NCBI RefSeq assembly: GCF_018977255.1
Contig: NW_024704743.1
Span: 23,872,001 to 23,936,000 of the forward strand
Reading direction: 5' to 3'
Length of the DNA: 64,000 nucleotides
Source: Callorhinchus milii
Lineage: Eukaryota
How positions within the stretch are numbered: position 1 is the first letter of the stretch; each line of letters starts with the position of its first letter. Shown one piece after another: positions 24,528 to 60,235 of the stretch. A program made the translations under genes and the position numbers. The notes beneath the pieces were generated by a model, which searched no databases, was not told the origin of the DNA, and was given only the letters and a program-made list of their open reading frames with translations.

Positions 24528-24749
<222 letters not shown>

Positions 24750-26259
24750 TGAAAACGTCCCATCCTTGAGAATAATAAGTTGCCATGGTGCAACCTGCCG
24801 GTGCTCTGCAGTGCCTAGTAATTATTTATCCATTAGGTGATTATCCTAATGATTTTCCTTTCCAAGTGATGGGACAAAACCTACTTATAATGTGCATCAA
24901 CAAGATAGTTACAGTCAGTATTTAATCCACACTTCAGCAATTTAACAGTCATTCCGTAAAGTAATTATTCAGAATGAATCGAGGTGTCATTTACTAATCA
25001 CACTTATCTAATGGTGTTCATTCACAGTTCTCCATAGGTTGAGGAGATAGATATACTGGGGGAGGGGAGAAGGACAGAGCAAACAGTGCAAATGCAATAT
25101 CTTCCAGTGAATAGATTGCATTCTTGGGTAACAGCAGAGTTGGATGTTGCTGTTTTGTTTTGTCTTACCGCAAGCATTTCAGAAATAAGATTTTGCTGCC
25201 TCTCAGGGGATAATTGCTATAAATTGGCTGCAAGCGAGCCCTGTTTCATTATCAGTTATCACGACGCTGTCAACTCTGAGGGGCTGCCTCTTCCCTTCCA
25301 GTGCTATAGCAAGCAGGAAGGATTAATTGGTGCACATTGAATTGTCACACATCTCTCGGACATATTCTGAATCCTTATATCTCTTTAGCGCCTCGTGAAG
25401 ATTTCCATCAGAGGAGGGGAAAATGATTAGATTATCTGATGTGCCAGAAATTACATCAATATTAATCTGAGGAATTCTGCAGAGCATGAAGTACCTATTT
25501 AAATCGATGGGATGTTTTGCTCGGATAAATGTCTTTTAAAGAAGCAGCATCTCTTCTTCCAGGAGCTGTGTTATGAGCTGAAGTTGAGCCATGAGCTCAA
25601 GCTCATACTCCTTGCAAACCAGTCCAAATGAATGGGAGGAAATCTATTTGTCAGCTAAAAATCATTAATCAGAATATATTGGAAGTCAAATAACTTATCG
25701 ACCATACAAAATTTGTACTTTTTTTATACTTTTGAGGAATTTTATGGAGAAAAGGCACTTTATAATTCTTAATTGTTGCTGGGTGCAGTTTTTCAAGTTC
25801 GCTTTTTTTTTTGAAAATATAGGAGGTTTATCTTAAGATTCAGAGCTGTGCTGAAAAATCACATTCCCAGAAGACATACTCAAATTATGATCTGGAGACA
25901 GCTAGGAGTACAGCTCAGGTAGCAGTTTCAAAAAGGGTTGTTTAAGCCCTTGAGAAGTGCAATGAGGTTGATCCCTGGGGTCAGAGAGATGTTCTATGAT
26001 GAATGATAGACAAGCTTGAGCACTTTAGCCTCAATAAGAGACATCTACGGTATAGAGGCATTGCATGTAAGGTAAATTATTATAATAACAATAACATTAA
26101 TTCACCCACAAAATATACAGTCAATCCACTTCACAGTAATATTCCGTGAAGAGCTTTGAGACGGTTCGATGACGTGATAAGGCACTATATCAAATGCAAG
26201 GATTAGTATGAATTATGTTAATAATATTGTTAATAATAATAACAATAATAATCCTTATA

Positions 26260-27175
26260 TCGTGGAAGCCTGTTAAGATTGGGGATGAGCGTTTTGTCCG
26301 GTTTAAGAGGCGCCTGAGGTTAACCAAAATATCTTTCAGCCCAACAGAGGAGAGTCACCAACATCGTATAATAATATGTAATAATAATAATAATCCTTGC
26401 AGTTGATATAGCGCTTTTCACGTCTTCTCGACGTCTCAAAGCGCTTCACAGAATAGACTGTAAAGTGAATTGACCGGATATTTATGGGCGAAACACGGCG
26501 GCCAATTGCTCACAGCAGTTTCCCACAAACAGTCGTGGATTGAAAACGACCAATTTACTATTGTTTTGTTTTGGAGGGATTACGTTGTTTCCCTTGAAGC
26601 AAGGTTAATTAACCAAACAGGACGCCAAGTATTTTAATTTAGGAATGAAAATACTGTACTCTCACAGAATACAGTAAAATATATTTACTTTGTTTGGATG
26701 CAAAATACCTCCCCCCCCCCCCCCCCCCCCCACCCAAGACCAATTAGCTATGGGGCTGAGATGACTGACAGCTTTGTTTGGGCTCCACCCATTCACAAGT
26801 GGCTCAGCTGTCAATCAATCACAATTTCCCTCCCTTGTTCTTCCCTGTTCCTCCACCCCCCCTCACTGATTGACAGCCCAACTTCAGCCGCTTGTGAATG
26901 GCTGGAGTCCGCTGTCAATCAATCTTAGACTCTGCCCATCTCCATCCGGGAACCCCACTCGTGGCTGAATGGAGCCGTTCGACATACAGAAGGCTCGAGT
27001 GAGGACCTTCAGTAGTCATCAGCGCAGCACTTTGCCCGGTTTAACCAGATTTTTTGTCCAATTCAATCGCCATATTTAAAACAGGTAAGAATATGACTGA
27101 ATTAGGGCCGGCCATTTTGTTCGATTTGCCCAGGGTTCGGGGTTAACCAGATTCCGGCAAAAGTGGATTCCACTG
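26260..27175. mobile_element. Non-autonomous Tc1/mariner-pogo (Tigger-like) DNA transposon with TA target duplication, interrupted by a SINE at 26380-26582
   Basis: Right end ...GGATTCCACTG|TA and left end TA|TCGTGGAAGCC, with subterminal GGTTAACC/CCGGTTTAA motifs at both ends. Removing the element restores a continuous SINE/L2 tail. Confidence 0.65.
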
Positions 27176-29189
27176 TATTTAATATAGTGCTTTTCATGCT
27201 GGGAGGACATGAAACAGGATATACCTTAAATTTTGTAGGCAAGAGAAAGTAAACCCAGAACAATTCTGTACTTACCAATGTGCCAAGACAGAGGATAAGA
27301 GTCCATGTTCAGATTTGTGAAGGGTAGGTTTGGGACAAGGAAGTACATTTTACACAGAGGATGATCAACAGCTGGAATACGTCAGCAGGAAGTGTGTTTA
27401 AGCCTGGGACATTGGATCAATTTAAGAAAGTTTGATACTATTATTGGGAAGATGGGAGGGTTGACATATAATGGTGATGTACAACCTTATATTGGATATG
27501 TATGATTTGCAGAATAGTAAAAATTCATCCTTTAACAGATTGTGAGAAATCTTTTGCTACAACAACCAAGATTACATACAAATGATCTGTTAAAGGAAGA
27601 ATTTTTTGCCTATTGTGGTGCTGCAACATCGGTGACATGTTACACTCTTCCACATTCAAAGGCTATGTATCTCCAGATCAGTTGAGTGAAGTGCAGTTAC
27701 TGCTACTTCTGTGGTTTCAAAAACCAAACATTATAGCCAGAACAGCACCTGGAAACTGCTGTAGTATGTGAGCCCAGCAGGTGGAAACAAACAGGTAATG
27801 TTTGGCTCACTATCATAACTTTTTACACTCAATACAAACAGCAAAGCAACAGAAGGTTTTGAGCCAGAAGTATAGCTGAAGAAGACTGTTTACCCATAAT
27901 TACATTCCGTCATGGCCATATTTCACATATTATTATTATGTGCTGTATCCAGGGATATATTTCTATACTGTCCTTAAGTGCCAATTAGTGGTAATGATTC
28001 AGATATCCACTAAACTGCCATTTAATAGTTTCCTCTGACTCTATCATGAATTGCAGTGGACTGAGGGTACTTTTTTACGCATGCTCTTTAATGTACAATG
28101 CTCTCACCATTACGCTCTATGAAATGCACATAAGGACACCTTTGTGTAGTTCCAGACAGAGTGGTTTTAAGTATCCTAAGGAGCCTGATAATTAGATGCA
28201 CAATTTGAACTTTGCCTGCCTCAATCTGCTGAATATATGGCTACGCAAAAATGTTGGGAGAGGGATTAAATAATTGATATTCCTTTCTTGAGTTTGAGAT
28301 TCTCCACCAGCTTTTTGCTTCTGTACTGTGGTGAGCAATTTGTTTCTCATGTGTACACCTGCACCTAATCCAATGTAGGCCATCATACCCACTCTTGAAA
28401 CGTTAATCTATTTTCCTCTTTCATTGTTATTACAAGGCAGCAGTCTAATCTGGGGGTGATGGGGTTAGGGATATATATAGAACGATAAAATGCTAGATAC
28501 CTACATGTGAGTACAAGGCGATAACTTGTTCAAGGGGTCACGTGACTTCATAAGCCAGAGAGTGATGTAAAAGCACCATCTGAGCTTTGACATGACATTG
28601 ACATTTTACAATGAGTGTTGTGGAATTCCGAGTGTATAAACAGCCACAGTACTCATGAACTAGCATCAGCACTGAAAGATTGACTATTCTGATCTCAACT
28701 CAAAGCTTGCCGAGTGATGATCAGCATACGATTACAGGAGGGGAAAGTCAGTTTATATTACGTTCAAGCACCCAGCTGAAATTGTGCCCTGTAGTATACA
28801 AATTGGTAGGAGAACTCTTGCAAGGCACAGTTCAGATTCTGACTGACAATGTAGTAAGTCTGACGCCAGAGAGTCTGTCCTTCATATCACCAGCCATTGC
28901 CAGATTTGGGAGAAGGGTAGTTTCTGAAGTCCAGGTAGTTCTTGGTTTGATTCTACAGAAGGCATATTATGTTGAGAGCACCACACACCATGTCAGGGTG
29001 TGAGATCACATCATGCCTCACACCAAGATCTTCCAATATTACAAGTGCTGAGAGAAGCTTTCAAGCCAAACTATGATACTCACCCACCCACAAGGAGGGA
29101 GGGAAATTAAAAGAATGTCAAGATACTGTGAGACAACAGAGACTGACCAAGATCTAGTAGCAAATTTTGCTGGTGTATTGTTGGCAAAG

Positions 29190-29345
29190 ACACTGGTAGA
29201 AATCCCTTTCTCTTTTTGGTGATGATTCAGGGATCCTCAACGTCCACTTGGACAGGCAAACTGGACATTGGTTAAATGTCTCATCGAAGTACACCACCTC
29301 AGACAATGCTGTGCACCCCCAGTATTGCATCAGTGTGTCAGCCAA
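29190..29345 (-). mobile_element. SacSINE1-like DeuSINE fragment
   Basis: Reverse complement of GGCTGACACACTGATGCAATACTGGGG...GATGAGACATTTAACC...GTGGACGTTGAGGATCCC. Confidence 0.65.
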
Positions 29346-29494
29346 AACTATCAGCTCGAAAGTTTCGATGAGGGGCTAAAGTTTCTGCACATTGAACAGC
29401 AAAGGTTTTTTCAAAGGTTAAAAGAAAGAAGCATCTTTAAAATTGGTCAAAAATTATTTTTTTTAAAAAATGCAAATTTCAATAAACTCTATTC

Positions 29495-29500
29495 TTTATT
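29495..29500 (-). terminator. Candidate polyadenylation signal (AATAAA) of the MROH1-like gene
   Basis: Plus-strand TTTATT at 29495-29500 lies ~290 nt downstream of the stop. On the - strand it is followed by T-rich sequence and an A8 run (29464-29457). Confidence 0.5.
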
Positions 29501-29791
29501 CAAAAATTAATTTTCGAATAAGCGGTATTGCAGCTTGTTCTTGGTCGTAACTAAGAGTAGAGTTGTCCTTTTACAGAAGAAATAGGTTTAGAATGGTGGA
29601 TAAAATGCATGCATCATCCCATTGACGTATTACTGTTGTCTGTTAAATAGCTCTGGCTGTTTTCATGGTCAAGGTTTCTTCATGTTAGGAGCAGCTATCT
29701 TGAATTTCAGATTTCCACTGCTTTGGGAACTCTTTTGTATACACAACACAAACAAATCCTACCTGAGAGGAGTGAGTCTCTTCTGACGAGT

Positions 29792-32700
29792 CTAATACTC
29801 ATAGAGGAGCATTATTGCTTTGGCTGCTTTAATTCTAACACTTGGGATGGGATCTAACAGTAATGTAATAATCTCATTACAAATCTGGTCAGCGGGGCCT
29901 GACCTCGGAAAATCTGGTGGTGCGTGTTTCATGAGAAACCCAATGAAGGTGACTGCGTTCTCTCTGATCTCCGGCTGTGCACTGCTGAAGAAGGGGACAC
30001 AACCCGTTATGTAGAATGTGATCTTCTCGGTCAAGTCTCTGCTTAGGTGGTTTGAGACGTTGCACAGAAATTCCTCGTACTCCAAAGTGGTCTCAATCAA
30101 GAGCTCTTCAAATATTTCGCAGATGCAGATTGACTCCATTATGGGACCCACCGTGGACAACACTGATTTACAGATCGCTATCACCTCACTACTCCTGTCA
30201 TTGAGGTGGAGCAGCAAGCTGATCAAGCTTGAATAGATCTGCTCCATAAACACAGGCTTCAGTTGTTTATCGCCAAATCTGATTAGGCTCCCGAGCACCA
30301 TGAAGGCTGCAGCTCTCACTCGTTCGTTGTCCTTTTCAAAAAGGGGCTGAATTGCAAGCGCCACTTCCAGGAGGATGGGATTGGAGTTCTCCTTCTCCAT
30401 CTTAGCCAGGACTTTGGAGATGCCCGACATGGCTTCGAGTACGATGAGATTGTTGGGCTCGTACTTCTCATCCAACACGGAGATCATAGCAGACAGCAAC
30501 TTGGTGGAATACTTTTCGATCTTGTTTGAACCTCCAATTGCAGCATTTCCCAGGCCCCTGACGGAGAGCCACCGGACTGCAGCCGAGGTATCAATCAAGC
30601 ACCTCAGCAGGCTACCCACCAGAGTGTCTGTGAGTTGCAGTTCTGAGACCACAGAGTGGTTTAAAAGCTCCCCAAAGAAGGCAGCCACAGTGATTCTCTG
30701 GCTCTCGTGGATGTTCACAAGGACAGGTGCAAGCTGCTCAGCAATGTTGATCAAGTGAGGGACAGCACAGTTGCTCATCACCCTCGCCAGCATTGACACG
30801 CCCTCATGATGTCGCTTTGGATTCTTAATCAAATCCCAGACTCCAGTGTCATTCATGAGCTTCATCTCATTCTCATTCTTTCCATGTGTCAGGATAGCCT
30901 GAAGTATTTCCACGCAGCAATTGCTAGCTTCCACATTTCTAGCTAGTTGAGGCAGAAAGGAGGTGGTTTTCCTGTCCTTTGGATTGTTGAGAAAATCTTT
31001 GGACAATTGGACTCTGACGCTGGCGCTGAGGTGAATGAGGAGAGTACTGAAGAGCTGAGGGTACAGCTTGCTCACCACCATTTCAGACTCAGGGTCAGCC
31101 AGCATCTCACGCAGGGCGCTGATAACATGTAAAGGCTGCTGAGCTGCTGCGCTTGTTACATTGCTGGTGAGAAGGGACTCTTTGCTGTCGTCGTATAGTA
31201 ACTTTAAGTTGTCTAGTAAGTACTTGATGGCAGTTGCAGCCAGTGCTTTGTCTCTGAGCAGTGATTTCCATATGTCGCTAACATACTTATCAAACGGCAG
31301 AGGGTACGTGAGGAGACAGGGCAAGACCATAGGCACGTTTTGGGAAGCCAGAATGGAGATGCAGTGAGTTACTGAGCGAGCCACTGGTTCCTGAGTGATG
31401 TACTGAGACTGGGCGTGCAGGACGCGGATTATCTCGGGAACCTCTTCCAGGCTCGCTCCGCGCCTTCGAATGAGGATGTTCATGACAATGGCGGAGGCGC
31501 AGGAACAGTTGGGATGCTCTTCAGTGAGTCCCTTAAAAACCGTGAAAAGAAGGTCTTTCATCTGATCCTGAGGCATCCGCTTGGATAAGATCTTGCCAAT
31601 GTCAGCGCATGTGCGGAAGAGAAGTAGACTGTTAAGGTGATCTAAGCCACTTTTAATGGTTTTCAGATGCTCCACTATGATATCTCTGTGATCCACTGCA
31701 AAACCTTCACAGCGCAGCTGTATGTAGAGTAGTGTGTACAGACTGTCGATAGCTGCCTGCCTCACAATGGGCAATGGATCAGTGCACCGGGGGATCATCT
31801 CTCCTACAATGACCCCGAGATTATGAAATGTAACGATATTGTTGACGTGAAGCTTTTCCAGGTAGAACATCAGCAGGTCTGAAGTGATCTCCATTGCTTT
31901 CTCTCGTTCATGGTCCTTGTCCGACTTGATCCAAATATTCACATGTTTGAATACAGACTGAAACCCGTTGGGGGACAAATCTAGGAGGAGGATTTGCTTC
32001 AGAAGATCCTGGAGCGAGGTCATCGTCTCATTGTAGAGCATCGCTCTGTTTTCCCCATCCACATTGGTGTCTTCTTTCAAAGATTCTGTCTCCGGTTGAG
32101 GCAAAGCGATCACACTTTTCAGGCAGATTTTAATCAATTCAGATGTATCCTCTTCTTTGAGCAGAGGCTCCAGTTTAGAAAGGAAGATGCAGGCGTTCAT
32201 TGCTGACTTTCGAATGGAAGTCTTCAGTACCTCGGTGGGCTCAGCCTTAATGAGTTCCTGCATATAGACCAATAGTTCTCCTCTTCTGGTGAATTTGAAG
32301 GTGGGACATTGTCGATTGGAATAGATAGCTCTGGCTATCAGGGTCACGGTCTTTATCAGGCTCAGCTTCACCGTCAAATCCTTGATTTCAACCTTAATTC
32401 CTAAAATTTTTATATTGAAGTTGTTTAGCACGTTCTGCAGAATGTCCGTCTCGATTCGGGACAGAATGAGATCCTCGGGAGAATGTAATATCACATACCC
32501 GTAACACAGTATCAGAGTGCTTTTAACCTTTATCATTTCAATGTCGGACTGGTCTTTCAGAATATGGAAGAAACTTGCAGTCTTCTTAAAGATATTTAAC
32601 TTTCCGTAATCTTTCAGTTTGTTCAGTGTAGTGTCCAGGTGGGTTGTGGCACAGTAACCAAATCCCGCTGCCACCCCCTCCCTCTCTAAAGGTTCACTAT

Positions 32701-34732
32701 GTTGAACGCTTTGCATCATCTCCTGAAGGTTCTTCTTCACCACATCTCTATTTTGGGTGTGCTGTAGCACCACACCCAGGCACTTGAACAGAAATCCCTT
32801 CTCCTGTGGGTAATGGTGATAGCTGTTAACATGCTTGATCATTTCTTCACTAAGCTGGTAAATCCATGCATCATCGGCAATCACCTCCAAAGTTCTGGAC
32901 AGGACCAGTAAGAGTTTATCTTCCCACTGCTGCTGGTCCATCAACACCTCAGAATTCTCCATCAGGAAATCCACCAATGCTGGCAGCTCCTTTTCCCATA
33001 CCTTTATCACTGCTTGGTGGATGTTGGCACCCATAATCTGCAGCAAGGTCAGTGCAGGCGCACCTCTGCCTTTTCCCTGGTATGGAGAAGAGGCCACAAT
33101 CAGCAGGCGTGTCAACAGTGCATGAGGCTTAGGAAGTGTTGGGTGCTTTACGTAACAAAGAAAAAAATCCTGCGCCTCGTTTTTCTGTTTCTTTGTGCCA
33201 AGGTGTACCAAGCACCTGCACACTGTTGCCAAGGCATTGGTGTAGCGCATGGTGACCACAAACTCCAGCAGGAACGGCCAGAGAACGTTCTCCATCCTCT
33301 CTGTGGTGGTGATGATGTTCATAATGACCTCGCACAGCCTTTTTATATCTTTATCGCTGATATCAGCTGACTGTGGGATGCACACATTGGGGACAGTTTC
33401 CACAACGGGAAGAGCACACTGTCGGATGATGAACTCCACCATTGCCTTTCCCCCCTCCAGCTCTAGGTAGCGCCGGTTGGCCATGCTGTATATCACTTGG
33501 GCCACCATTCTTTTCACCCTGTTGTTGTTATCCAGCAGGGGGAGTTTCATGCCTTCCAAAATGCGAGGTTTCTTAGACTCCAGGCTCGAAGGCACAGCGG
33601 TGATCAGGTGTTTCAGCGCAATGAGCGTCCCTATTCGGATCTGTTCATTGTTGGCTTCCAGCTGCAGCAGAAGGAATTCAGTAATTTGGTCAGAAAAGGA
33701 CGGAGTCAGGACTTTGAAGCAGCAGAGGACTTCGTTGTGATTCTTGCTGGTAAAGTGGTTTGCACTGTCCACGGGGATGCAGATCTGATTGTGTAGACTG
33801 AGGAGCAAGCTCTCCAGTTGGAGTTCCAGCACCTCACTGCCCCTCTCCATGGCAGCGTGCAGTATCCCACATAAGCCCTGAGTGATACAGAAATCACTCG
33901 AGTTCTTCTTGTACATGGACAGAACCGTGGGGATCAGGTTGGACAGCTCATTCTCTAGCTTGTCGTAAGGCATCAGGTGGCTTAACTGACCTATAGTCTC
34001 TACCACTGCTGTGCCCACCTTGGATTCTTTGATCGGAAGCCACACAGAGAAAAGTATATCGTAAGCAGTGGAAATCTCAGTGAAGAATAAATTCTTCCTC
34101 ACTGTAGGATCTGGGGCCTCATCTATGTCTGATAGGTATGCAAGGATGCTCTCACTAAAAAGACCCAGTGCTAAACAGAACACCCACTTCATCTTCTCTT
34201 GGGTTACCATCGGAAGCATTGTAAGCATAGTGTGCAAGATTGGCTTTAACATTGGTACTATGTGATGCACATTTGCTGTGCACAGATTTGCCAATGTTAG
34301 AACCACATAGAAATGTGGAACACAGCCCTGATGAAACATCGAGAGCATCTCATCTAAAACCTCATTGGTAAATCTGCAGCCCAGGGTAACCAGCAGGTTA
34401 CTTGCAGCTTCCTGATGTTCGGGAAGTACATCCTTGCATTTGGTCATCTCTGTCGAAGCCAAGTAGATGAGCTTTTTAGCCACGGGTCGGTTCAAGTACG
34501 CAATTGTGTCCCTCACTATCAATTTCAAACTCTTCAATAAAACTGCCCGATGCACTGCCAATAACTTTTTATGCTTAAGGAGGTATTCCCGACAGAACAG
34601 TAGGACCGCCTCTGGATGAGAACATCCCAGTTCATGCAAGGACTGACACATTTTGTTGCTAACAATATCACCCTCATCGAAAGTGACGTCCATTAACATG
34701 ACCAACAAATCTTCCACGTTGACGCTCGCCAT
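29792..34732 (-). CDS. MROH1: Intronless maestro heat-like repeat protein, MROH1-like (HEATR7A family), 1646 aa; probable retrogene nested antisense in a CTNND2 intron
   Basis: Uninterrupted 4941-nt ORF. The first in-frame ATG is at 34732 in context aaaATGG; the track's start at 34753 is a GTG. Stop is TAG at 29794-29792. Motifs colinear with recalled MROH1 include LASTEMTK, APDPTVRK, LPLLDNNNRVKR, YLELEGGKAMVEFIIRQCALP, VLWPFLLEFV, EKGFLFKCLG and QRITVAAFFGELL. Length is close to human MROH1 (~1640 aa). The symbol denotes the family; this is probably a paralog, not the ortholog. Confidence 0.9.
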   Translation of the reverse strand: MASVNVEDLLVMLMDVTFDEGDIVSNKMCQSLHELGCSHPEAVLLFCREYLLKHKKLLAVHRAVLLKSLKLIVRDTIAYLNRPVAKKLIYLASTEMTKCKDVLPEHQEAASNLLVTLGCRFTNEVLDEMLSMFHQGCVPHFYVVLTLANLCTANVHHIVPMLKPILHTMLTMLPMVTQEKMKWVFCLALGLFSESILAYLSDIDEAPDPTVRKNLFFTEISTAYDILFSVWLPIKESKVGTAVVETIGQLSHLMPYDKLENELSNLIPTVLSMYKKNSSDFCITQGLCGILHAAMERGSEVLELQLESLLLSLHNQICIPVDSANHFTSKNHNEVLCCFKVLTPSFSDQITEFLLLQLEANNEQIRIGTLIALKHLITAVPSSLESKKPRILEGMKLPLLDNNNRVKRMVAQVIYSMANRRYLELEGGKAMVEFIIRQCALPVVETVPNVCIPQSADISDKDIKRLCEVIMNIITTTERMENVLWPFLLEFVVTMRYTNALATVCRCLVHLGTKKQKNEAQDFFLCYVKHPTLPKPHALLTRLLIVASSPYQGKGRGAPALTLLQIMGANIHQAVIKVWEKELPALVDFLMENSEVLMDQQQWEDKLLLVLSRTLEVIADDAWIYQLSEEMIKHVNSYHHYPQEKGFLFKCLGVVLQHTQNRDVVKKNLQEMMQSVQHSEPLEREGVAAGFGYCATTHLDTTLNKLKDYGKLNIFKKTASFFHILKDQSDIEMIKVKSTLILCYGYVILHSPEDLILSRIETDILQNVLNNFNIKILGIKVEIKDLTVKLSLIKTVTLIARAIYSNRQCPTFKFTRRGELLVYMQELIKAEPTEVLKTSIRKSAMNACIFLSKLEPLLKEEDTSELIKICLKSVIALPQPETESLKEDTNVDGENRAMLYNETMTSLQDLLKQILLLDLSPNGFQSVFKHVNIWIKSDKDHEREKAMEITSDLLMFYLEKLHVNNIVTFHNLGVIVGEMIPRCTDPLPIVRQAAIDSLYTLLYIQLRCEGFAVDHRDIIVEHLKTIKSGLDHLNSLLLFRTCADIGKILSKRMPQDQMKDLLFTVFKGLTEEHPNCSCASAIVMNILIRRRGASLEEVPEIIRVLHAQSQYITQEPVARSVTHCISILASQNVPMVLPCLLTYPLPFDKYVSDIWKSLLRDKALAATAIKYLLDNLKLLYDDSKESLLTSNVTSAAAQQPLHVISALREMLADPESEMVVSKLYPQLFSTLLIHLSASVRVQLSKDFLNNPKDRKTTSFLPQLARNVEASNCCVEILQAILTHGKNENEMKLMNDTGVWDLIKNPKRHHEGVSMLARVMSNCAVPHLINIAEQLAPVLVNIHESQRITVAAFFGELLNHSVVSELQLTDTLVGSLLRCLIDTSAAVRWLSVRGLGNAAIGGSNKIEKYSTKLLSAMISVLDEKYEPNNLIVLEAMSGISKVLAKMEKENSNPILLEVALAIQPLFEKDNERVRAAAFMVLGSLIRFGDKQLKPVFMEQIYSSLISLLLHLNDRSSEVIAICKSVLSTVGPIMESICICEIFEELLIETTLEYEEFLCNVSNHLSRDLTEKITFYITGCVPFFSSAQPEIRENAVTFIGFLMKHAPPDFPRSGPADQICNEIITLLLDPIPSVRIKAAKAIMLLYEY

Positions 34733-35999
34733 TTTATGTTCACCGCTTAGCACATCCTGGAGTCCAAGGCTTGCAATTTCCTCAAAACAGTGGTTTATTT
34801 TTATGCATATTAGTCCCTGAACTCCTCTGTTTCATTGCAAACAAATAATAGCAGTTTATTATTTCGCCCAAAGTAGTGCATTTTAATGAAGGGAGGGAGA
34901 AGTATGGCTTTTTTTCAAACTCTTAATTCTTGACTTCTTTGATTCACTGTCACAACAGCCTAGAAGATTGCCCTGAGCATAATTCGATGGCTGTTCTGTT
35001 GAACTTCTATTTACTCAGCTCATGAAATCTACTTTGAAAAGATCCTATTTTGTTTCTGGTCTAGAGTATCTCTCCTTCGGATAAATACATACCCATTGTA
35101 GCCTTACCAAACAGTTTATGAATTGGAAGACAGCTTGCCTTTACCGATTAGGAATTACGTCTTCCTTTCTCTGTGACCTTAACAAAGATCATTTCTCATT
35201 TAGGATTAATAGCAGTTGAAGCGACACAGAATTTTCTTTGTTGCACAGATACTTCTCCTCACAGTTTCACTTGACCAATCTGCCTATTGATATTATTCCA
35301 CTTCCTTTGCTTTCTTACCAACAAGTGATGGCTGATTACATCCTCAAGAGCAGCAGTGCACTCTTCTTAAACCCATGTGCCAGATTTTTTTTTAATGGTA
35401 ATCCCAATTGATTTGATTTACAATCTCAAGAAATTAGAATATCAGGAAACTAGAACCTTCAAAATTCTGTGGTTACATTGTTCAAATCCTTAACTTGTTT
35501 TGAATTCCTTACTTGCTCAAATCAGCCCAAAGCAACTCCTTTTCGCTCTATTAAGTCAGTCTTCTCAAGGCACAGACTTTCCCCACGTATTAGGTTTAAA
35601 ATAACTATTCAGAGCACAGAAATCTAAAACTCACCAACTTTTGATCTTTCTATTGATGCTATTTGCTGTACCTCAGTTTCTCACAAACGAGTAAGAAAAT
35701 TATTTCTCCAAATCTACTGTTTTGAAAACGCATCAATCTTTTTCTTCAGTGTAATTCCCACTATTTTGATTTGCCTTTTCAACGGACGTCCATTCTTTGA
35801 ACCTAAGAATTATCTGTTGACTTATTGGTCTTTGATGAGTTCCTTATTTATCCAGTTCAACCTAAATAAATTTCTGCTTTACACAAATCCCTTTTTGCAC
35901 TTGTGTGGAGTGATCTTCCTTCTGACAAACACGCTTCCAATGGCATAGAGCTCTCCAGGCCAGTGCAAACTTGTTCTCAGACCTTTAGGGTTTGAGCTA

Positions 36000-36390
36000 G
36001 GTTACCTTCCCACTTTTCGAGTGATTTTCTCTCTCGTTCTAATCCCGGATTCTTTCTCCTTTGCACTTCGTACGGCTTCTTATTCAGATTCTCAGTCCTT
36101 TAACCGCTCTTCCGAATCTACAATTGACTTGTTATGAATTGCTATATCCCCTCACGTTTACATACGCTGTTTCTCTGTCTTCGCCTCCAAAGCAACTAAC
36201 TTTCCTCTCTAACTCGGGACCAACAACCACACAAAGGCTTTGTGTCATCATGGGTGTCATTATGAGGCCATGTGACAAGCAGTCACATGACTCCCCCCCC
36301 ACCCCACCCCCACCCACCCACCCCCACCCCCCACCCACCCACTCCCATCCCAGCCGCCCACCTCAGGTGGTGACCCACCATCATGAATGA
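36000..36390 (-). promoter_or_regulatory. Candidate promoter / non-coding first exon of the MROH1-like gene
   Basis: About 11 CpGs in 36001-36230 against a CpG-poor background, an inverted CATGTGAC pair (36269-36289), CACCC/GC-box-like runs (36292-36362) and a donor-like AAG|GTAAC on the - strand at ~36005. Inference only. Confidence 0.35.
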
Positions 36391-36825
36391 TGTATTTTGG
36401 AGTCCATTTATATAACTTTTCATCTAGTTTGCAGACATTTGCAAATATTAATTATGCAGCGTTATTGTAGTGTTTGACATAAAATGGAAAACGGATCATG
36501 AGTGGATCATTTGAAGAGAGAGAATATAAAAGGAAATAGGGAAACTGTAGATTAGAATAGGCTAGCACCGGTGTATGCACTGGCACCTTAGAATTACAGA
36601 GAACTTTGCAACACGGAAACAGGCCATTCGGCCAAAATAATCCATGCTAGTGTATTTATTCTACACAGGCCCCCACTACTTCTAATCCGTTCTCGTATAC
36701 ACCTCTGTTTCCTTCTCTATCATGAAAGACTGCAAAGCTTTGCATTGAATGTTAGATGCTTTCAGTAAATATACATGTAAGCATACATGTAAAGTACATT
36801 TATCTGTATTGTGTGAGTGTATTCC

Positions 36826-37074
36826 TAGCAGTAAGTAGGAACCCAGTTAGTCAATTGGCAGATCGCGTCTCGGGTTAATAATTCCTCCAAAAAAAAATAA
36901 TAATAAATTGATCACTCAATCCATGACTGTTTGTGGGAAACTGCTGTGATCAATTGGCTGCCGCGTTTTGCCCACAAAATGTGGTCAATTCACTTCACAG
37001 TATATTGTGTGAAGCGCTTTGAGATGTCTCGAAGACGTGATAAGGCGCTATATCAAATGTAAGGATTATTATTA
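36826..37074 (+). mobile_element. tRNA-Ala SINE long form, 5'-truncated
   Basis: Begins within the long-form segment (CTAGCAGTAAGTAGGAACCC); core and tail are intact. Confidence 0.8.
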
Positions 37075-38289
37075 TGTAAGGTGTTTCCTACTCAAATTCA
37101 AGTACATGTGGCTAAACCTGTGGCTATTAAGCAATTGCTATTTAACAACACTGTCCTTAGGGGGAAATCTCAAGGGGGTTAAGATCTGGCTTGTGATTTG
37201 TAGAGTTAAGAGGGACGTAACCTTTTTTTTCCACGTAGAGGGTTATTAGAATAGGGTTAGGGTGGCTTTTGAACCTAAGGCCATAACAACATTTAAAAGG
37301 GAAACAAACAGAGAAAAATGGCATGACGAGTTCAGGAAAAGAACAAGGAATTGGAATTAGTACAGTCAGTTCAAGTAGAGGACCTCATACCAATCCAACA
37401 TAAACACACTGGGTTGAATCGTCTCCTTCCATGCTGTAATTTATAGAAATTCAAGGAAAGGTTCACCACAGTTTCTCTTTACACCTTGAGGATAATCACA
37501 TTAACTTCTATTTTAATAACTAAGTATCATTGGATTAATGTTGATGCAACGTCGAGTGACATTGGGCTGATAGTGAAGATGTGATGTTATCAGAATTTGC
37601 CCAGTAAGAGAATGACAGACTATCTGCAGGGTTTGAGAGGGCTCTGTTTGTTCAGTAGTGGGTGTGTTCAGCAGTTCTGCAACTCTTGGTTGATTTATGA
37701 GCAACATTTAGAGTTCAAATTGAGAGCATGGATCCGCAAGCCAATTTATGGCTTGTAAATGGAGCTGGAAAAATGGTATGTGATGAGCGTTTGCCACATG
37801 GGCTGTGCAAGCCAGCATGCACTGTAGAGGGAACCCATGTTGTGGTGAGTGTAAATCATTTATATTCCATCTATGAAGCCTATCGTAACTCAATTGCCAC
37901 TTCACCACTTGTAAGGTCAGCCTCACTTATAGAGCATAAATCACGTCCTGCAGCTGACCACAGCATAAGAAGAAATTTCCATTTTTCTCATGACTTATTA
38001 TGTCTTAACGTACTGCTAAGTGTAGTGACTGTTTTGGTAGGCAAACGTGACACTATCAGGAGGTACTCAATAAGTTAATAATAAATAATCCTTGCATTTA
38101 TCACTTATCTCAAAGTGCTCACAGAATTTGCTGTGAAATGGAGTGACTGTTTTTGTAGGAAAATGTAGCAGGATAATTGTGCACAGCAATGTGCCACAAG
38201 CAGCAATGAAACAAGTTTTTTTTATTTTGGGGGATTGTTTATTTTGGTGGACACCAGAAGAAACTCCCTTGTCTTCTCAGTGCCACAGG

Positions 38290-38560
38290 GTTTACGTCCC
38301 CCGAGTCCTCCGCTGTACCTTCAACAGCCGTGCCTTCAGCCACTATGCCCCGAGGCTCTGAAACTCCCTTCCTCATTCCCTTCACCTCGCCCCCTCTCTT
38401 CCTATTTTCAGATCTCAGCTGAAGACCTTTCTCTTCGATCGCACCTTTGGTCACCTTCCTCCCCCGCCCCCTAGCTCAGCCCCGGGATCCATTACTGTGA
38501 AGCGCTCTGAGACGCCGTCCGGTGTGGAGGGCGCCATAAAAATTCACGTTGTTGTTGTTG
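38290..38560 (+). mobile_element. L2 LINE 3' end
   Basis: SRAFSHYAPRL frame, then TGTGAAGCGCTCTGAGACG...GGCGCCATAAAAATTCACGTTGTTGTTG tail. Confidence 0.75.
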
Positions 38561-39971
38561 TCTTTAATGTCCACCTAAAAAGACAAACGGGACCTCAATT
38601 TAACGTCTAATCTGAAGGACGTAATGTGTGTCAGTGGGTTTGGGAAAGTGGTTTTGTTTGATGGTGTGTGTATCCCATGATAGGTATGCATCTTTGTAAC
38701 AAAAAAGGTAGCTTTTGGTAAACTCAGAAATATTATCACTAACAGAACAAGTACCCGGTGCTCCAGGGCTGCCTTATGCAACTGCTGACACTTTGTGCTT
38801 CAAGGTGACAGATGTCTGTCTGGGAATGAAGGTCATTCCATTCCAGAATCAGTATGAAGCACATCCAGGTGCTTATAAAGCTTGGTTGTATCCAATACTA
38901 GTAATAATAATCCTTGCATTTGATATAGCACCTTATCACGTCATTGAGACATCTCATACGCTTTACAGAATATAATGTAAAGTTAGTGACTATGTATTTT
39001 GTGCGCGAAACGTGGCAGCCAGTTGCACACAGATCTATTATCTAGAATAAAGCTCTAGATTCCCAACACAGAGTCTTCCTGATGCCAACCACATGACCTT
39101 GAAGGGCTAGAGAGGAGTCTCTAGATACTCTCTCAGAGGCATAGATGAAACGTCAAGAGTGCCGATCACTGCAGACTGGACACATGTTTGCCCATAAAGT
39201 TGCATTGGAATAAACGTAACATTTCAATCCATCCTCTTAACCAGGAAGCTCCACACAGAGGATATATTAAGACGGGGAAGGGGGTATTAGCAGACAGTAA
39301 CAGACTATTTGAAAAATAAGGAGGACTGGCTGGTACTCACAAGAATACTCCTTCACCTCTGGATCCATTCAAATCCATCACAGAAAGATTGGATGAAAGT
39401 CTTCTCTCCGGTGGCAGCAAAGGTTGAATGTGAAATGAGTCTGAACCCAGTTCTCAGCAGTGCAAGTCTGTCTATAACTCAACATTAATTGGCATTAAAT
39501 TGACAGTCAAGAGAGGCCATAAATGCAGCTAGTGTGGAAATGGATGTGTCACTCTTGTGCAGTTGGTAGAGGAAGAGCCTCTGCTGAAACTGGAATGAGG
39601 GCACGTTGCCCAAACTTTTTCCACTGCAACAAGCATTTTTACCTAAGGCATTAATTTGTCTACATTGCCCACAAAAGACACAGTGACTCCACTTTACAAT
39701 ACATCCCATGAAGCGCTTAGAGACATTCACTCTCCATACTAAATATAAGGATTATTATTATTAAAAATGTGCAGTCACAACACTGAACAGTAATTACCAT
39801 GAAGTACTTTGATATCAAATGCAGCAATTATTTAGTATTAGATTTAAAAGTAACATTTCCATTCTGCCCGCCCCCCACCACCACAGTCTTTTAATAATAA
39901 TCCTTAATTCTACCATCTATAATCCTTGTTACTATGATACTATGAAGATGGTCCATAATAATATGACCTTA

Positions 39972-40413
39972 TAATAATGATCCTTACATTTTACATAACG
40001 CCTTTCACATCAGGAGGACATCTCAAAGCGCTTCAGAAGATTTGCTGTAAAATGTAGTTACATGTGTATTTAGTAGGCAAATATGGAAGCCAATCTGAGC
40101 ACAGTGATATCCCACAAACATCCAAGAAGTGAGGAACTAATTTTATTTGGAGGATTGTTGGCTGGAACTTCAGGGGAAACTCTCATCTCTTTTTGAATAG
40201 CGCCATGAGATTTTTAACATCCACCTATACAGGCAGACGGGAGCTCGGTTTAATGTCTAATCCAAAAGGAAAGCACCTCCAACAATGCATCTCATCTCCA
40301 GCACTGTATTGGAGGGTCAGCCAATACAGTGAGTTGAAAGAACCAACATGGGCTTGAACTTACAACCTCCAAATTCGGAGGCAAAATTGTTGCCAACTGA
40401 GCCAGACTGACGC
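39972..40413 (-). mobile_element. SacSINE1-like DeuSINE, near full length
   Basis: Colinear reverse complement of the 52883 copy from head (GCGTCAGTCTGGCTCAGTTGG) to tail. Confidence 0.75.
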
Positions 40414-40932
40414 ATTTTAGAATGAAGCTGAAGTGAATTTATTTTCTAAAAAAAGCTTTATATGAGCAAGAGAATGGGGAGAGAAGTCAAGAAAAACATA
40501 AGGAAAACAAAAAGGGAGGTGAAAAGCGGGAACAAAAGATGTACCTCCGTTCTGTAGGGAGTGTGGAGCTGCAGGTTTGGTGACGGGAGAAACATTGTAT
40601 AACATATCCAAACTGCCTCCTGTAGGTCCGAAGTCCCGATCTACATTCCATTTTTCACAGCTGAAAACTGGATGCTCTTACTTCCCAACCTGAGAGGAGC
40701 TTCCAGGGCTTTCTCTTTATTTACAAACATTGTTGATGGTGGTTTGACCTCCGTGGCTGGAGCAGACCATGGTTTCCACATTGTTTAATGGGAGGTGACA
40801 GAACAGCACTCCCAGCGGGACGCAGTCTGCCGCTCTTGGTATTCTCTTTGTAAATGTATGTCACTGAACAAAAGGCAGAGCCAAAGCATCTTCATTACCT
40901 GCACGCATGCCTCTCACTCCCCACAGACAGAT

Positions 40933-41321
40933 AATGATATAATAATCCTTGCATTTGATAAAGTGCCTTATCACGTCTTCGAAACATCTGAAAGCGCTTC
41001 AGAGAATATACTGTAAAGTGAGTTGACTGTATGTTTTGTGAGCAAAATGTGGCGGTCAATTGCCCACAGCACTGTCCCACAAACAGTAGGGGATTAAATG
41101 GCCAAATGCTTTTTTTTTAATTTTGTTTATTTTGAAGGAACTATTACCCCTGGAAAAGCGATCTGCCAATCGACTAACAACCAGGTTCCTACTTACTGCT
41201 AGGTAAACAGAGGCGTGTGGAATAAGGAAAATTGCCTAATGTTTCACCCTGCCCGGGAATCGAACCCAGGTCCTCTAGCTTGCGAGGCGAGCGCTCAAAC
41301 CTCTAAGCTGCAGACCTCCAC
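40933..41321 (-). mobile_element. tRNA-Ala SINE, long form, full length
   Basis: Head, long-form segment, Deu core and tail are all present on the - strand. Confidence 0.85.
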
Positions 41322-44300
41322 TTTACATGCAGAACACTTTATCATGCATTCACAGGAAAATTGCCTTCACAATTGTGTCCAGAAAGAGTTACCATTTGTG
41401 AAATTATAATTGTGATTTCCTAAGCAGACTGTATACAACACTGACAAATGCACATTGCTGTGATGTGAGGCTGCTGCTCTGAGGCAACCTATTAATTAGC
41501 CGACAGATCATCACCGGAATATTAAAAGACTTGATTAGCCCAACTTTGTACAGCCAGAAAGCTGCTTTATTTAACTGTCCCTGCAATGTGGGACTTAAAG
41601 AATGGAATTATTAAAGTAATCACCATGACAACAAAATCCTATCTTTCAGGATGACAGCTGTGAGCAGCACAACATGTATCTTAGGCTGAATAGTGTAGAG
41701 ATGTGACAATGGAAGAATGTTCTGAAATTTTGCCGGAATAACTTTGGGGAGGGCTTACGTCTCTGGAGTCGGGGAAGGGAATCGATTTCTGATTTGCAGA
41801 AATAGGTTGCCCCAGAACCTGTGACAGCCCCGAATGAGGAAGATCACATCTAAGCAAAGAGATAAATGTTGTAGTCAACAGTTTCTGTTAATTTGATGTG
41901 ATTTTCATAAGTCAGCCATAACAGTGTAGGGGTATAGCAATGGTGTAACTGACATTAATTCATCGCCAGGATATGGGTTCAGATTGAAAAGGTTCCAGGA
42001 AGTTCAATTAAACACCTTCAGTCTCTTTAGTGCCGGATTCTTAAATGATGCTCAAAGGATGGCAATGGTGCCCCATAAACACAAGCAGAGCTCTTCACTT
42101 ACACTTAGCTCAGGCCCGAGCAGCTTGGAGCAAGTAGTATTACTGAGGTCTGCCAACTCCAAATTGCTATGCAGGCATTGGGTTGGTGCGTGAAACACAA
42201 CGTTGGCTGATCAGGAATACTTAATGATATTGCAGTTTGAAACAAAGATTCCTCACAGATCAGAACAATGTCAGATGTCGTGCATAATAAAAATGATGCT
42301 CCTCTGACAGAAAAACGCAGCAAAATATTGTTTGAAGTCTACTTTCACAGAATTGATTGACAGGTACCCTAAGTGGGACAACCAGTAATTGCTTCCCTTA
42401 AGCCTCCTTGTCTGCCTGGAAATTTCTGTAAGGCGACATGGAAATTAACCTGGCCTTTTTACTGCTGTCTTGAAGAAATTGGCTTCCAGTGACCACAGAA
42501 AAGATAACAGAATAATCAATGGAAACCAGGCCACGTGTTCTGGGCCCTCGAGGTATGAGGACTTCAGAAAGAATAAAACATGGGGAGATTAGTCTATTGT
42601 TGAAGAAATGAATGCAGTTAACATTCATTAGAATTGGAGAGAATAGATCTGAAGGAAATGGAACTGCCTTAAGGTATCTTATTTGCTTCAAGGAAGTTTT
42701 AATTTTTAAAATCCCCCTTCAAATTTTGGCCGTCTTCTCCCAAAGGTACAGCTTTGTGCTGCGGTGCAGTATATTGGGTGAGAGACACCACTTAGTTCCT
42801 CTCCCATTCTTCTTTTTGAGCCATTAAGCTTCTGGGGCAAGATTGGAGGATTTCCACACTAGCTTGATCCTTGTCTCATTCAACATCTACATGCGCAAAT
42901 TTCAGAAAGGGTTACTGGATATCGGTCAGATGTGATTTCACATCCCCCAGAGCTGCTCTGTTCCTATTGATTATCACAAAGGAACCCTAACCCATTTTGA
43001 GATTAGATCCCACTGTCTCTCTTTCTCTTTGAGTTTCTCTAACCTTCTCTAGCTCTGTCTATTCTAATTCTTTTTCTATCTTAAAACTGCACTCCAGTTG
43101 TGCGCAAGTTATGCACAAGATTATTAAGAGCTTAATTCAGCTGCCCATAGTGAGCAAATCAGTTAACTTGGCTGCCCCAACAGAGGGGTTGGGATTCCAT
43201 TGCAATAGACAATAGAAACAGGGTGAGGGATCTCTAGTCTCTGCTGAGGACCTGCCACAGCCTGTGGTACTGAAATCCATAGTGCCACTACTACTGCTGT
43301 CCTACTTTACCGGAAAGACCTCCAGACCTCTTTATTAAAAGAAAAGGCTTGGCTGGCTGCCATAATTTTCAGCCCACAGATACCTTTTTTTACCTTAACA
43401 ATGTTCACTATTTTTGTGTGGGGATGGGGAGGGAAGAGTATGGCAAAGTATTACGACTTCATTATTCAATTCAAATGGCATAATTATCACCTGTGATATT
43501 CTCACATTGGCAAAGATTACAGGCCAAGCCAGTCAATTATTATTGAATAGGCTTGGCCTGAACCTCCCCCAACCCTTCCCCATCCCACCATGAGACTGGC
43601 CCTATAGTTTTGCTCAAAGCATCTTGCTACCCCCAGTGTTATCAATCCAATGTTTTATTCGAGTACCACTTCACAAATTTCCAGTAGTATCAAATAGGGA
43701 TTACACTGGTTGATCTCTGGATTGTAAATGCTTCAATAATAATAATTCTTTCATTTAATATAGTGCCTTATCACTTCATCAAGACATCTGAAATCGTCAT
43801 AGGATATACTGTGAAGTGTAGTGACTGTGTATTTTGTCGGCAAACGAGGCAGCCATTTTGCAATGTCCAGAAAGCAGCCATGGAGTGAATGGGGTTAAAA
43901 AGGGAGAGGAAAGATGGTAGAGGTTAGGACTGGATAAGACTCATTGAACTGGGTTGAACTCATCAAGAAACATGTTGATACTGTAATGGGAAGACAATAA
44001 GGTGGGTATTCTGGAACGATGAGATCAAATGGGTTGAAAGGCATTCTTCATGCCGAACTTCTGTTATGAGCCTGATCTTATGAAATTTTACAATTAGCGA
44101 TGTGAATCAGTTTCCTCTTGAGACTGGGGAGCATGGATAGATACAAGGTGTCCACTCTACTCCAGTAAGTTCCTGAGTAAGACACTGCAACGAGAGGAAA
44201 TAATATGCCATGATATCTGCAGTATCTGCAATGATAGCGTATTAAGTAGATCAGTGAGCTTTATTTCTCCTTGAAGGCATAAGTCTCCCTCAACAAGATT

Positions 44301-44336
44301 GCTTGTCTTCCAACCAACTTATTTTGACCAGAATAA

Positions 44337-44600
<264 letters not shown>

Positions 44601-53614: not shown

Positions 53615-54744
53615 CATGCTATTAATGCCAAGCTATGTGGTTTTAGCTGGTTAGACTCCAGCAATATCTCAACCACACAGTGGGGTACCCAAACTTTAGC
53701 TCTTGCCAAAGCTGTGCCTAATTCTGTCCAGAATTACGTAAGCAGGTAATGTCTCTCTGGTGGAGAGAATGATTAATTCTTTCCAGAAATGGGAATATCT
53801 ATGTGTAGGTAGCTTGCATGCAATTCTGAGTCTGGTTTGAATTAGTCTGGTTTGAATTGGAATTGATCAGCCATGATCAAATAGAATGGCAGAACAGGCA
53901 CAAGGGGCTGAATGGCCTGCATACTCTTAATCACATGTGTCCTATCAAGAGCAATCATAAAATGAGGGGGTGCCATGCACTCCAAAAGCCAAAAATTCCA
54001 CCGAGTCTTAACCCATAAGACCGTTTCGTCTTAAAATTTAGGATCGCATACAGTTGTGAACAATTATCCAACAGGATGATTGCCACTTTTATCTGTCAGG
54101 AGCATTGAATCAATGAAGAGACAAACTGAGTGTGACTGAGAATATCAAACACACTGAAAACTTCTTAAAATGAAATGTTTAAGAAAACAATCCAGTCATT
54201 CACATGGGTCCTGATATTGTAGCAATCCTTTTCTAATCCAATTCTCAAAGGCAATAGTATGATTAACATGCTGCCCTTTCATCTCTGGGACTTGGATTGG
54301 AATATAATCCTTAATAATCCTTGCATTTGCTATAACACCTGATCATGTCAAAACATCTCAAAGCATTTCATAGGATTTACTGTAAAGTATAGTGACTATC
54401 TGATCAAAGTCTCTCAGGGTATTTGAACACCTAACCTTCAGGAACCTAACAGGAAATTTAGTTAAGTTGATTTCTGGGAAATTGCCATATGTAGGTGGCA
54501 TATATTTGTGAAATTGAGTCTGGTTTGGATACCAAAACATCAACTTGCATTTGAATTTTTTTTAAAATTGGTCACTCAATCCACGACTCTTTGTGGGACA
54601 CTGCTGTGCGCAATTGGCTGCCGCGTCTTGCCCACAAAATATACACTTTACAATATATTCGGTGAAGTGTGTTGAGACTTCTCAAAGACGTGATAAGGTG
54701 CTATATCAAATGCAAGGATTATTGTTGTTATTATTAAACAGCGT

Positions 54745-55710
54745 TGTTCACACAGGATAGCATCTTGGAATGCTGCATAGTAATGAGGTTGGATGCCAAC
54801 AAGCAGCCAGGTTGACTTGAGGATGTCACAGAGGTAGGGTGGGGCAAGACCATAGAGGGGAGGAGGAGCATCTTGAACTCGATTCTCTGGGGGATGGGAA
54901 GCCATCGGAGTCGTGCGATGATTGGGGTAATTGGCTAGTGGAGCCCAATGAGGGAGAGGACATGAGCTGTAGAGATCTGGATGGTCTACAACTAGTGGAG
55001 GGAAGAGTTGGGAAGCCCAGCAAGCAGAGTTGGGGTGGTCAAGCTTGGACATGATAAAAGCATGGATAAGAGACTTGGCGGTCCTAAAGGGAGAAGTAGT
55101 GGAGGAGACTGGAAATGTAGAGGAGGTGGGTGTTTAAAGGACATTTGAGAATCGAACAAGACTCAGGGGTTCTGGCTCCATGAGGTGTCGAGTGCATCCA
55201 TGTAGTGTGATGCTGTCAGCACGTGAGATGAGAAGGTGCTGATGGGAACTAAGCAGGAGAATCTCTGTCTTGTCAACATTAAAGTGGAGAAAGTTAGCTC
55301 TCATCCAGGACTTGATGTCTGATAGGCAATTGGTTAGAACAGCAGTGGTCCTAGAATTGAGAGTGGAGGCAGAAAGATGGAATCATGTGTCATCCACATA
55401 CAGATGGAGTTAACCCATATGCCTGAGGTTGACATCGCTCAGTGGAAACAGGTAGATGTTAAAGAGGAGAGGACCGAGGATGGATCCCTGAGAAACACTG
55501 CACGGGATGATGCGGGTATAGGAAGAGAAACTGTTGCCAGATATAAAGTGGAGACGTTGAGATAGATAAGAGCGAAACCAAGGCAAGGACAGAACCATGA
55601 AGGCAGAGCTGAAGGAAAAGGCAGTGGAGAAGAATAAAATGGCCAACAATGTTGAAGGCAGCAGAGAGGTCATGAAGGATGAGGAGGTAGAGAGAGCCCT
55701 GGTCCAGAGA
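54745..55710 (-). mobile_element. Degenerate L2 reverse-transcriptase fragment
   Basis: PWFRSYLSQR, VSQGSILGPLLFNIYL, LYGLAPPYLCDIL. Confidence 0.8.
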
Positions 55711-58364: not shown

Positions 58365-58548
58365 GAGTGCTGTGGAACTTGTCATCATGTGATGCACTGA
58401 AGATGCCCATTATCCAGGATGCACTTGTGGTGCTGACCAATGCTATAATCATTCCACATTCCGGCTGGGACATCTCCCCACACCAGGAAGACCGCAAAAT
58501 TCAGCTCCATTCGTCCATGGTGCTGCGCAATGCCACCGGCTGTCTGAG
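58365..58548 (+). CDS. CTNND2: Catenin delta-2 internal coding exon (armadillo repeats), 184 nt
   Basis: Polypyrimidine tract with aaAG ending at 58364; donor GTCAGT at 58549. G|GA completes the Gly codon, then [60 protein letters not shown](R). Phase matches the previous exon. Confidence 0.96.
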
Positions 58549-59401: not shown

Positions 59402-60235
59402 AACAACAACAAAAAATTACATTCATAGAGCGCCATTCACGTCGGGAGGACGTCCCAAAGTGCTAAACAGTCAGATGTCGGGGCCTGAGCATGGGGGAGG
59501 GGCGGTTTAGGGCTGAGGGAAGGTAGAGAGGTTGGAGGGCGACCAAAGGCACGATCGAAGAGAAGGGTCTTGAGACCAGCAAGGGAGGAAGTGAGGCGAA
59601 GGGATGGTGCGATGGAGTTCCAAAATATGGGGGCAGAGAGGCTGAAAGCTCGGCCGCCGATGGTAGGGCAGGTCGGGCGGGAGACATGGAGCAGATCGGA
59701 GCCCGCTGAATGGAGTAAGCAGGCAGGTTGGTAGGGAGTCAGCAGGTCAGAGAGGTAGGAGGGGGCAAGGCCATGGATGGCCTTAAAAGTGAGGATGAGG
59801 ATCTTAACCTCGATCCTCTGGGGGATGGGGAGCCAGTGGAGTCGGGCGAGAGTGGGAGTGATGGGGTCATGGAGCCTGGTGTGCGAGAGTACACGAGCTG
59901 CAGAGTTTGGGATGTTCTGCAGCTTGTGAAGGGAAGAGTTGGGAAGGCCGATGAGGAGTGAGTTTCTGTAATCGAGCCTTAAGGTGACAAATCCGTGGGT
60001 GAGGGCTTCGGCAGCCTGAGGGGTGAGGCAGTGGCAGAGTCTGTCAATGTTGCGGAGGTGGTGGTAGGCAGTGCCGGTCATGGCGTGGATGTGGGGGAGA
60101 AAGGACAATTCAGGGTCAAACAAGATACTCAGGTTCCTGACTGGCTTAGTGAGGTTGAGTGTGGAGGCTGATGCTGCCAGCGCCCGAGGTGTGGAGGCGC
60201 TGGCGCGAGCCAATCAAGAAGGCCTCGGTCTTGCA
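59402..60235 (-). mobile_element. L2 LINE 3' fragment with a largely open ORF2 C-terminal frame
   Basis: The 258-aa frame contains VRNLSILFDPELSF, RLDYRNSLLIGLP, ARLHWLPIPQRIEVKIL and GGRAFSLSAP. The tail matches the SINE tail and ends in (GTT)n. Confidence 0.9.

Follow-up and report, generated by a model that had tools for sequence, protein, structure and literature searches.

The minus strand of the 64-kb stretch of DNA analysed here (the window) carries at positions 29792..34732 an intronless MROH1-like coding sequence for a 1,646 aa HEAT solenoid, which our trees assign to lineage A of a retrogene family in cartilaginous fishes. On the evidence of those trees, one retroposition more than ~420 million years ago seeded at least four lineages of such genes, with six or seven in elasmobranchs. 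A working retrogene is the best explanation of the whole and probably the right one, and it is almost certain that the window gene represents lineage A in this chimaera and that purifying selection has maintained its open frame. Nested antisense retrogenes are ordinary per se, and the novelty lies in the retrogene family more than in the nesting within CTNND2.

The open frame and its host intron

An ORF scan of the window found a single long open frame on the minus strand at 29792-34732, 1,646 residues plus stop without interruption, the runner-up frame reaching only 258 aa. The stop-to-stop span is 29792-34831 and the first ATG, at 34732, lies in a strong context (AAAATGG). The length fits the MROH1 family range of about 1,640-1,650 aa, and Pfam detected HEAT_Maestro_2 (E 5e-218), HEAT_Maestro (E 1e-71), HEAT_MROH2B_1st and HEAT_MROH2B_C, a set of four domains that canonical shark MROH1 has too, in the same order. 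An AlphaFold model of residues 1-1200 is helical almost throughout (mean pLDDT 87, pTM 0.69), its closest solved folds are CAND1, karyopherins and other HEAT/ARM solenoids at 10-13% identity, and a sequence search found no solved MROH structure. From this model we are confident that residues 1-1200 are predicted still to fold as an MROH1 HEAT solenoid.

The frame lies antisense and entirely within a single intron of an intact CTNND2. Three plus-strand host exons, all with AG/GT ends and 96-98% identical to Callorhinchus milii catenin delta-2, are present in the window: one preceding the host intron (24560..24692) and one following it (44385..44598), both encoding Arm repeats, and the next exon at 58365..58548. 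The host intron itself (24693..44384, plus strand) is 19,692 bases long with GT-AG ends, and the other parts of CTNND2 are arranged in order along that contig, at about 23.58-24.02 Mb. At G000:C2:106762846-106762956, 83 Mb from CTNND2, a copy of a single exon of this gene stands by itself, with 89% identity over 36 residues and its donor site kept; the surrounding 10 kb contain no further CTNND2 exon. Elsewhere in the window there is a lone N at position 20936, an abundant SINE-like repeat among many repeats of 100-250 bases, as well as decayed frames at 59437-60213, 54648-55133 and 3410-3985, which resemble LINE-2 reverse-transcriptase tails; the longest of these gave no Pfam match.

The locus, frame and flanks together, is common to two related organisms, B and C, at about 8% divergence in the frame and 12% in the flanks, values from which we infer that both are other chimaeras. 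In organism C one contig of 8,401 bases spans the frame and both flanks, and in organism B pieces extend from the frame into either flank. Among elasmobranch lineage-A proteins, 0/24 (16 species) were on the CTNND2-bearing scaffold, with scaffolds compared by length alone; as a positive control, the parental MROH1 was on the CTNND2 scaffold in four of the five elasmobranchs having both, and in sterlet. Lineage A has thus relocated at least once, and CTNND2 is probably no more than the place where this copy landed. Sharks may nevertheless have an unannotated nested copy, since the protein collection searched lacks even the window protein, though the copy on contig C11 of the same genome is annotated. 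Nesting as a family trait was rejected, because the C11 copy follows a RhoGEF-SH3 gene of the same orientation at a distance of 3 kb and the elasmobranch clade-mates gave the 0/24 above. The sequence-only reading of this DNA had described a retrogene inside CTNND2: the retrogene stands, but not as a lone gene, being one of four copies, and its position is seen in this genome and, as far as frame and flanks show, in organisms B and C, but in none of the annotated elasmobranch clade-mates.

Parent gene, sister copies and family tree

The multi-exon parent that the same reading proposed to seek was found on contig C70 of the same genome, an MROH1 gene with 42 coding exons and 41 GT-AG introns totalling 26.6 kb. 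Its product (1,649 residues) and the window protein (1,646) align end to end over 1,637 residues at 53% identity, and all 41 parental introns, including the first at codon 8, are missing from the window frame (38 of the junctions lie where the alignment has no gaps, three near small indels). The earlier interpretation as an uninterrupted 4.9-kb ORF antisense in a CTNND2 intron, with no hidden intron, and as a whole-mRNA retrocopy was therefore borne out. The parent as assembled here is interrupted by an in-frame stop at codon 94 (G000:C70:245667-245669) and by one extra A in a short A-run (240081-240084); as it keeps 283/290 of the residues that never vary among 16 other vertebrate MROH1 proteins, these lesions are likely an assembly error or very recent damage. 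The 42-exon structure and the intron comparison come from a corrected parent model, and a preliminary model with three false exons underlay the trees and dN/dS, residues 82-100 being masked in the trees only.

Searches with two protein and two Pfam queries gave a lower bound of five MROH loci in the genome, one multi-exon and four intronless; no MROH2/MROH7-like locus was found by Pfam PF23210 and PF21047 genome searches (likewise lower bounds), which returned only the parent and the four copies. Besides the window gene, the genome search located a complete copy (G000:C1592:3458-8416), a copy in two pieces with a one-base shift and a divergent C-terminal tail (G000:C11:12615743-12620670), and a copy ending at a contig edge (G000:C1529:3-1967). 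The shift in the C11 copy falls in an A-run near 12618050, which the UniRef model reads across and the RefSeq model skips, and this copy lies about 2.5 kb from a GC-rich stretch. The C1592 and C1529 copies are on GC-rich unplaced contigs of 10-12 kb. Their shark counterparts, lineages B and C, are neighbours, so these two contigs may be adjacent on one small chromosome.

The copies have no flanks in common beyond a short leader and no parental flanking sequence alongside. At the window copy there is no recognisable poly(A) tail or target-site duplication, nor would one be expected at such an age. The 5' leader (34733..34792, minus strand) shows weak, ATG-anchored similarity to that of the C11 copy, with a score that 0/1,000 shuffles reached, as one among 12 comparisons; a similarity to the parent leader (p 0.025, again one of 12) is not relied on. 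A candidate splice acceptor, a CAG behind a T-rich tract, can be read from the letters at 34827..34829 (minus strand), 94 bases before the ATG, and a putative 3' UTR at 29458..29791 (minus strand), with AATAAA at 29495-29500, has only two gap letters against organism C. An A-rich stretch upstream was rejected as a coding extension, having no frame and matching none of four longer elasmobranch N-termini. Carriage by a mobile element or virus was also discarded: four pattern matches to viral contigs yielded none confirmed, and there were no terminal repeats and, the short leader apart, no shared flanks.

Among the best 120 of 513 homologues of the window protein, the top 28 named or placed rows are all elasmobranch, 49-59% identical, and most carry the plain name MROH1 from automatic annotation. 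Searched by tblastn against the five loci, elasmobranch relatives fell into parent-like, window-like and C1592-like sets. In a tree of 29 rows (LG+C20 PMSF, quick search), the four intronless copies are united with their elasmobranch partners in a single clade with 100 SH-aLRT support, which is nested among the vertebrate MROH1 rows as sister to cartilaginous-fish MROH1 (99 SH-aLRT), apart from bony-vertebrate and lamprey rows; a 100-row FastTree and a 29-row JTT tree have an equal topology. The window gene groups with eight elasmobranch lineage-A rows (sub-lineages A1, A2 and A3) at a support of 100, the C11 copy with skate, sawshark and whale shark proteins, and the C1592 copy with lineage B, whilst the C1529 copy joins a basking shark protein near lineage C on long branches and is less sure. 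All named members of the clade are cartilaginous fishes, and none of the bony-vertebrate rows falls within it, in trees where bony-vertebrate matches were only sampled and named MROH2A/2B rows were not included. AU tests reject a clade of the genome's own four copies (p 1e-32) and a pairing of the window gene with its own parent (p 6e-60), using LG+G4 quick trees and alternatives chosen after the first tree had been inspected; by this measure a chimaera-only origin and recent copying of the own parent are both rejected. According to the cited passage, chimaeras and elasmobranchs split 421 million years ago (PMC3692497), which together with the tree places the retroposition, along with three or more later duplications, before that date. 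The old retrogene of the earlier reading thus gained a clade shared with sharks and rays.

An intronless structure is shown for the four own copies and for two catshark copies, the latter (1,654 and 1,650 aa) lying on contigs of just 6,205 and 5,608 bases, which leave no room for the parental introns; the elasmobranch lineage-A genes are presumably intronless as well. In white shark the accessions of lineages B and C are consecutive and lie on a single scaffold, and in zebra shark the two again occur on one scaffold, which suggests that one local duplication lies behind these neighbours. Four elasmobranch models (P0022, P0242, P0002 and P0072) are longer at the N-terminus by 100-240 residues, for which the sequence upstream of the chimaera copies offers no match and which are probably gene-model artefacts; those of the Heterodontus models resemble retroelement pieces.

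Selection on the frame and change at the N-terminus

For organisms B and C, constraint is given as gap and substitution counts from alignment tables. Organism C has no gaps in 4,941 coding bases, whereas its four flank pieces, 3,111 bases together, contain 153, a rate that would predict about 240 gaps in the frame; the two gap letters in its frame-spanning piece map, by table offsets, to 29594-29606 in the 3' flank. Substitutions amount to 7.9% in the frame vs 12.3% in the flanks, and the five pieces of organism B that are listed wholly inside the frame (2,730 bases) are likewise free of gaps. When random substitution was simulated, the frame stayed open in one of 300 trials at 4% and in none of 300 at 6%. 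Against paralogues, dN/dS is about 0.13-0.18 for the window gene (parent about 0.15), at a dS near saturation; among close relatives it is bounded at about 0.12-0.6 according to the synonymous rate assumed, and constraint there may be modest. The coding differences listed against relatives are few, five of which four are synonymous, and some may come from paralogue contigs. The functional constraint claimed by the sequence-only reading is upheld by the indel-free frame in organism C and by the dN/dS against paralogues.

Taking as invariants the positions unchanged across 16 vertebrate MROH1 proteins, the window protein keeps 65/89 (73%) in residues 1-300 (33833..34732, minus strand) vs 80/86 (93%) in the conserved middle core, residues 451-1050 (31583..33382, minus strand; p 0.0005). 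Its own parent retains 84/85 (99%) at the N-terminus vs 95% in 451-1050, and in eight distant MROH1 representatives the two regions are about equally conserved (58-90% vs 67-83%). All nine retro rows tested show the deficit, with 49-74% in residues 1-300 vs 79-93% in 451-1050, each at p 0.02 or lower. R337 was kept in 16/16 vertebrate and 8/8 distant MROH1 rows and lost in 9/10 retro rows. Positions 1051-1350 are relaxed also, the window protein keeping 25/36 invariants. The retro rows share ancestry and are not independent, so the N-terminal deficit counts as a single pattern of the whole family and not as nine separate events. In lineage A (four rows) the N-terminal losses are mostly polar, the window protein keeping 20/33 polar vs 35/42 hydrophobic invariants; no such bias was seen in three other retro rows tested (p 0.16-0.8). 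With part of its N-terminal invariants lost, the window protein is no canonical MROH1 orthologue, and its sequence marks it as an MROH1 paralogue. As to the meaning of this pattern, we think it rather likely that the changed surface-type residues of positions 1-300 alter what recruits the protein to membranes, the N-terminus of MROH1 then presumably serving as a recruitment surface.

Possible traces of expression came from two runs of one study guessed to be RNA, where short contigs cover parts of the frame and of the flanking intron, and fit an own transcript, host pre-mRNA or DNA alike. Three skips in these runs were rejected as introns, as they are not GT-AG on the gene's strand and best match the parent sequence. 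One contig in each run bridges short patches that best match the spliced sequence of the parent.

Origin, possible role and known systems

The loss of all 41 coding introns and the monophyly of the intronless copies point to a single retroposition, and very probably one spliced MROH1 mRNA was reverse-transcribed and inserted in stem cartilaginous fishes. Further duplication of the retrocopy would have followed, at least once nearby and several times onto other chromosomes, with at least four lineages by our tree before chimaeras split from sharks and rays. The window gene would be the chimaera member of lineage A, preserved by purifying selection, its product having kept the MROH1 solenoid and middle core whilst the N-terminal change would mis-target or re-target this scaffold. 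Heritable retroposition requires germline transcripts. From this need, and by analogy with mouse Mroh1, MROH2B and the sparrow MROH copies (see below), we tentatively propose that the protein may be a version of the MROH1 membrane-fission scaffold that is specialised by tissue, probably with a testis or germline bias, and that works on lysosome-related organelles. Possible, and more doubtful, is a wider picture in which six or seven full-length MROH1 retrogene lineages derive from one 5-kb founder >420 million years ago and spread by germline re-retroposition, with the fission core kept and the N-terminal recruitment surface rewired, forming a germline fission toolkit that arose separately from the amniote MROH2B/Maestro sperm genes and converges with them.

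Other accounts can be given of how the frame arose. A young processed pseudogene or an assembly artefact could be suspected from the absence of the exact protein from a collection of 15 billion proteins and the lack of any listed match above 59% identity; the 53% identity to the parent, the shark orthologues, the shared locus on one contig in organism C and the depletion of indels leave this scarcely credible. Wholesale intron loss in a DNA duplicate, by gene conversion with cDNA, would give an intronless frame by another route than insertion of a retrocopy. A duplicate on the same chromosome is conceivable, given the scaffold that the parent shares with CTNND2 in most of the elasmobranchs compared and in sterlet, and neither tail nor target-site duplication survives, yet every intron is gone down to the one at codon 8, none of the four own copies (0/4) keeps any, and parental flanking sequence is absent beside them, which makes this route very improbable.

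The remaining accounts share the origin by retroposition, or leave it untouched, and differ in what the copies are for. Under one of them the copies are redundant or dosage back-ups that do the ordinary MROH1 job, perhaps replacing a decaying parent in this chimaera, as their full length, domain order and retained middle core, together with the stop and one-base shift of the parent in this assembly, might suggest. The parent, however, retains nearly all of its invariants and has full-length elasmobranch orthologues, the guessed-RNA contigs (one per run, in both runs) bridge patches closest to its spliced sequence, and retention over 400 million years with a shared N-terminal change would be unexpected of pure redundancy, so we consider back-up copies improbable. 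Under another, the lineages diversified through endolysosomal conflict, in defence against intracellular microbes, with N-terminal surfaces meeting or escaping foreign proteins. The six or seven lineages are only 51-62% identical to one another where compared, lineage-A changes concentrate in N-terminal polar residues, dN/dS among the chimaera-like relatives possibly reaches 0.6, and some lineages diverge faster than the parent: shark-vs-ray identity is 57.8% in lineage C (67.5% in A1 and 64% in A2) against 74.8% in the parent, and in lineage D the figures are 51% vs about 69%. In four same-species comparisons, however, conservation of the A1, A2 and B orthologues is close to that of the parent (85.4 vs 84.1, 73.7 vs 75.2, 94.3 vs 92.7 and 70.3 vs 72.4%), and there is mostly a single copy per lineage per species, with no rapid birth and death; we regard conflict as unlikely and retain the working retrogene as our preferred reading.

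The cited passages describe MROH1/HPO-27 as acting in lysosomal fission, linked to WASH, with a Drosophila orthologue that binds Rab7 (PMC5450189, PMC13587356); MROH1 has been recognised as a lysosome fission factor only recently, and these passages map no binding parts. The retro family offers a natural set of variants with the core kept and the N-terminus changed, and points to residues worth testing; were the proposed re-targeting true, the changed residues of the retro lineages would map the membrane-targeting site of MROH1. No paper on a cartilaginous-fish MROH1 retrogene family was found in the literature searched, where subscription journals are largely missing. MROH is unmentioned in the main text of a 2026 survey of vertebrate retrocopies, in the supplements of two genome papers and in the cartilaginous-fish papers that a literature search listed.

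Compared with canonical MROH1/HEATR7A (HPO-27, Dictyostelium Mroh1 and the gene on C70), the window copy is alike in its length of about 1,645 aa, four domains, helical solenoid and middle core, but lacks coding introns, belongs to a multi-copy set at other loci, is 53% identical to its own parent and has lost N-terminal invariants such as W106, R240 and R337. Its closest relatives are the elasmobranch 'MROH1' proteins of the same clade, including XP_067850867.1, XP_067829319.1 and XP_041061728.1 (49-59% identical), which differ in forming three sub-lineages on scaffolds other than that of CTNND2, and to which databases give the name of the parent. That name covers up to five distinct genes per shark or ray, and confounds work on orthology and expression. 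The amniote testis paralogues (MROH2B, Maestro and the sparrow expansion) are similar as extra MROH copies with a male germline link: in the cited passages, mouse Mroh1 mRNA is highest in testis (PMC13587356), MROH2B is induced in spermatocytes (bioRxiv 2024.11.26.625329) and the expanded sparrow copies come from families whose expression is biased towards testis (bioRxiv 2023.02.19.529176). As far as these passages describe them, the sparrow copies are segmental duplications, whereas the cartilaginous-fish copies would derive independently from MROH1 by the RNA route. In the same retrocopy survey (bioRxiv 2026.06.26.734816), the passages cited give median retrocopy lengths of 375-674 bases in vertebrates, count 95.7% of cartilaginous-fish retrocopies as species-specific and describe testis retrogenes such as PGK2 and PDHA2, which resemble the window copy as intact processed copies under purifying selection. 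Unlike genes of the PGK2/PDHA2 type, the window gene is far longer (4.9 kb) and older, an unusually long and old retrogene that would have founded a whole dispersed family.
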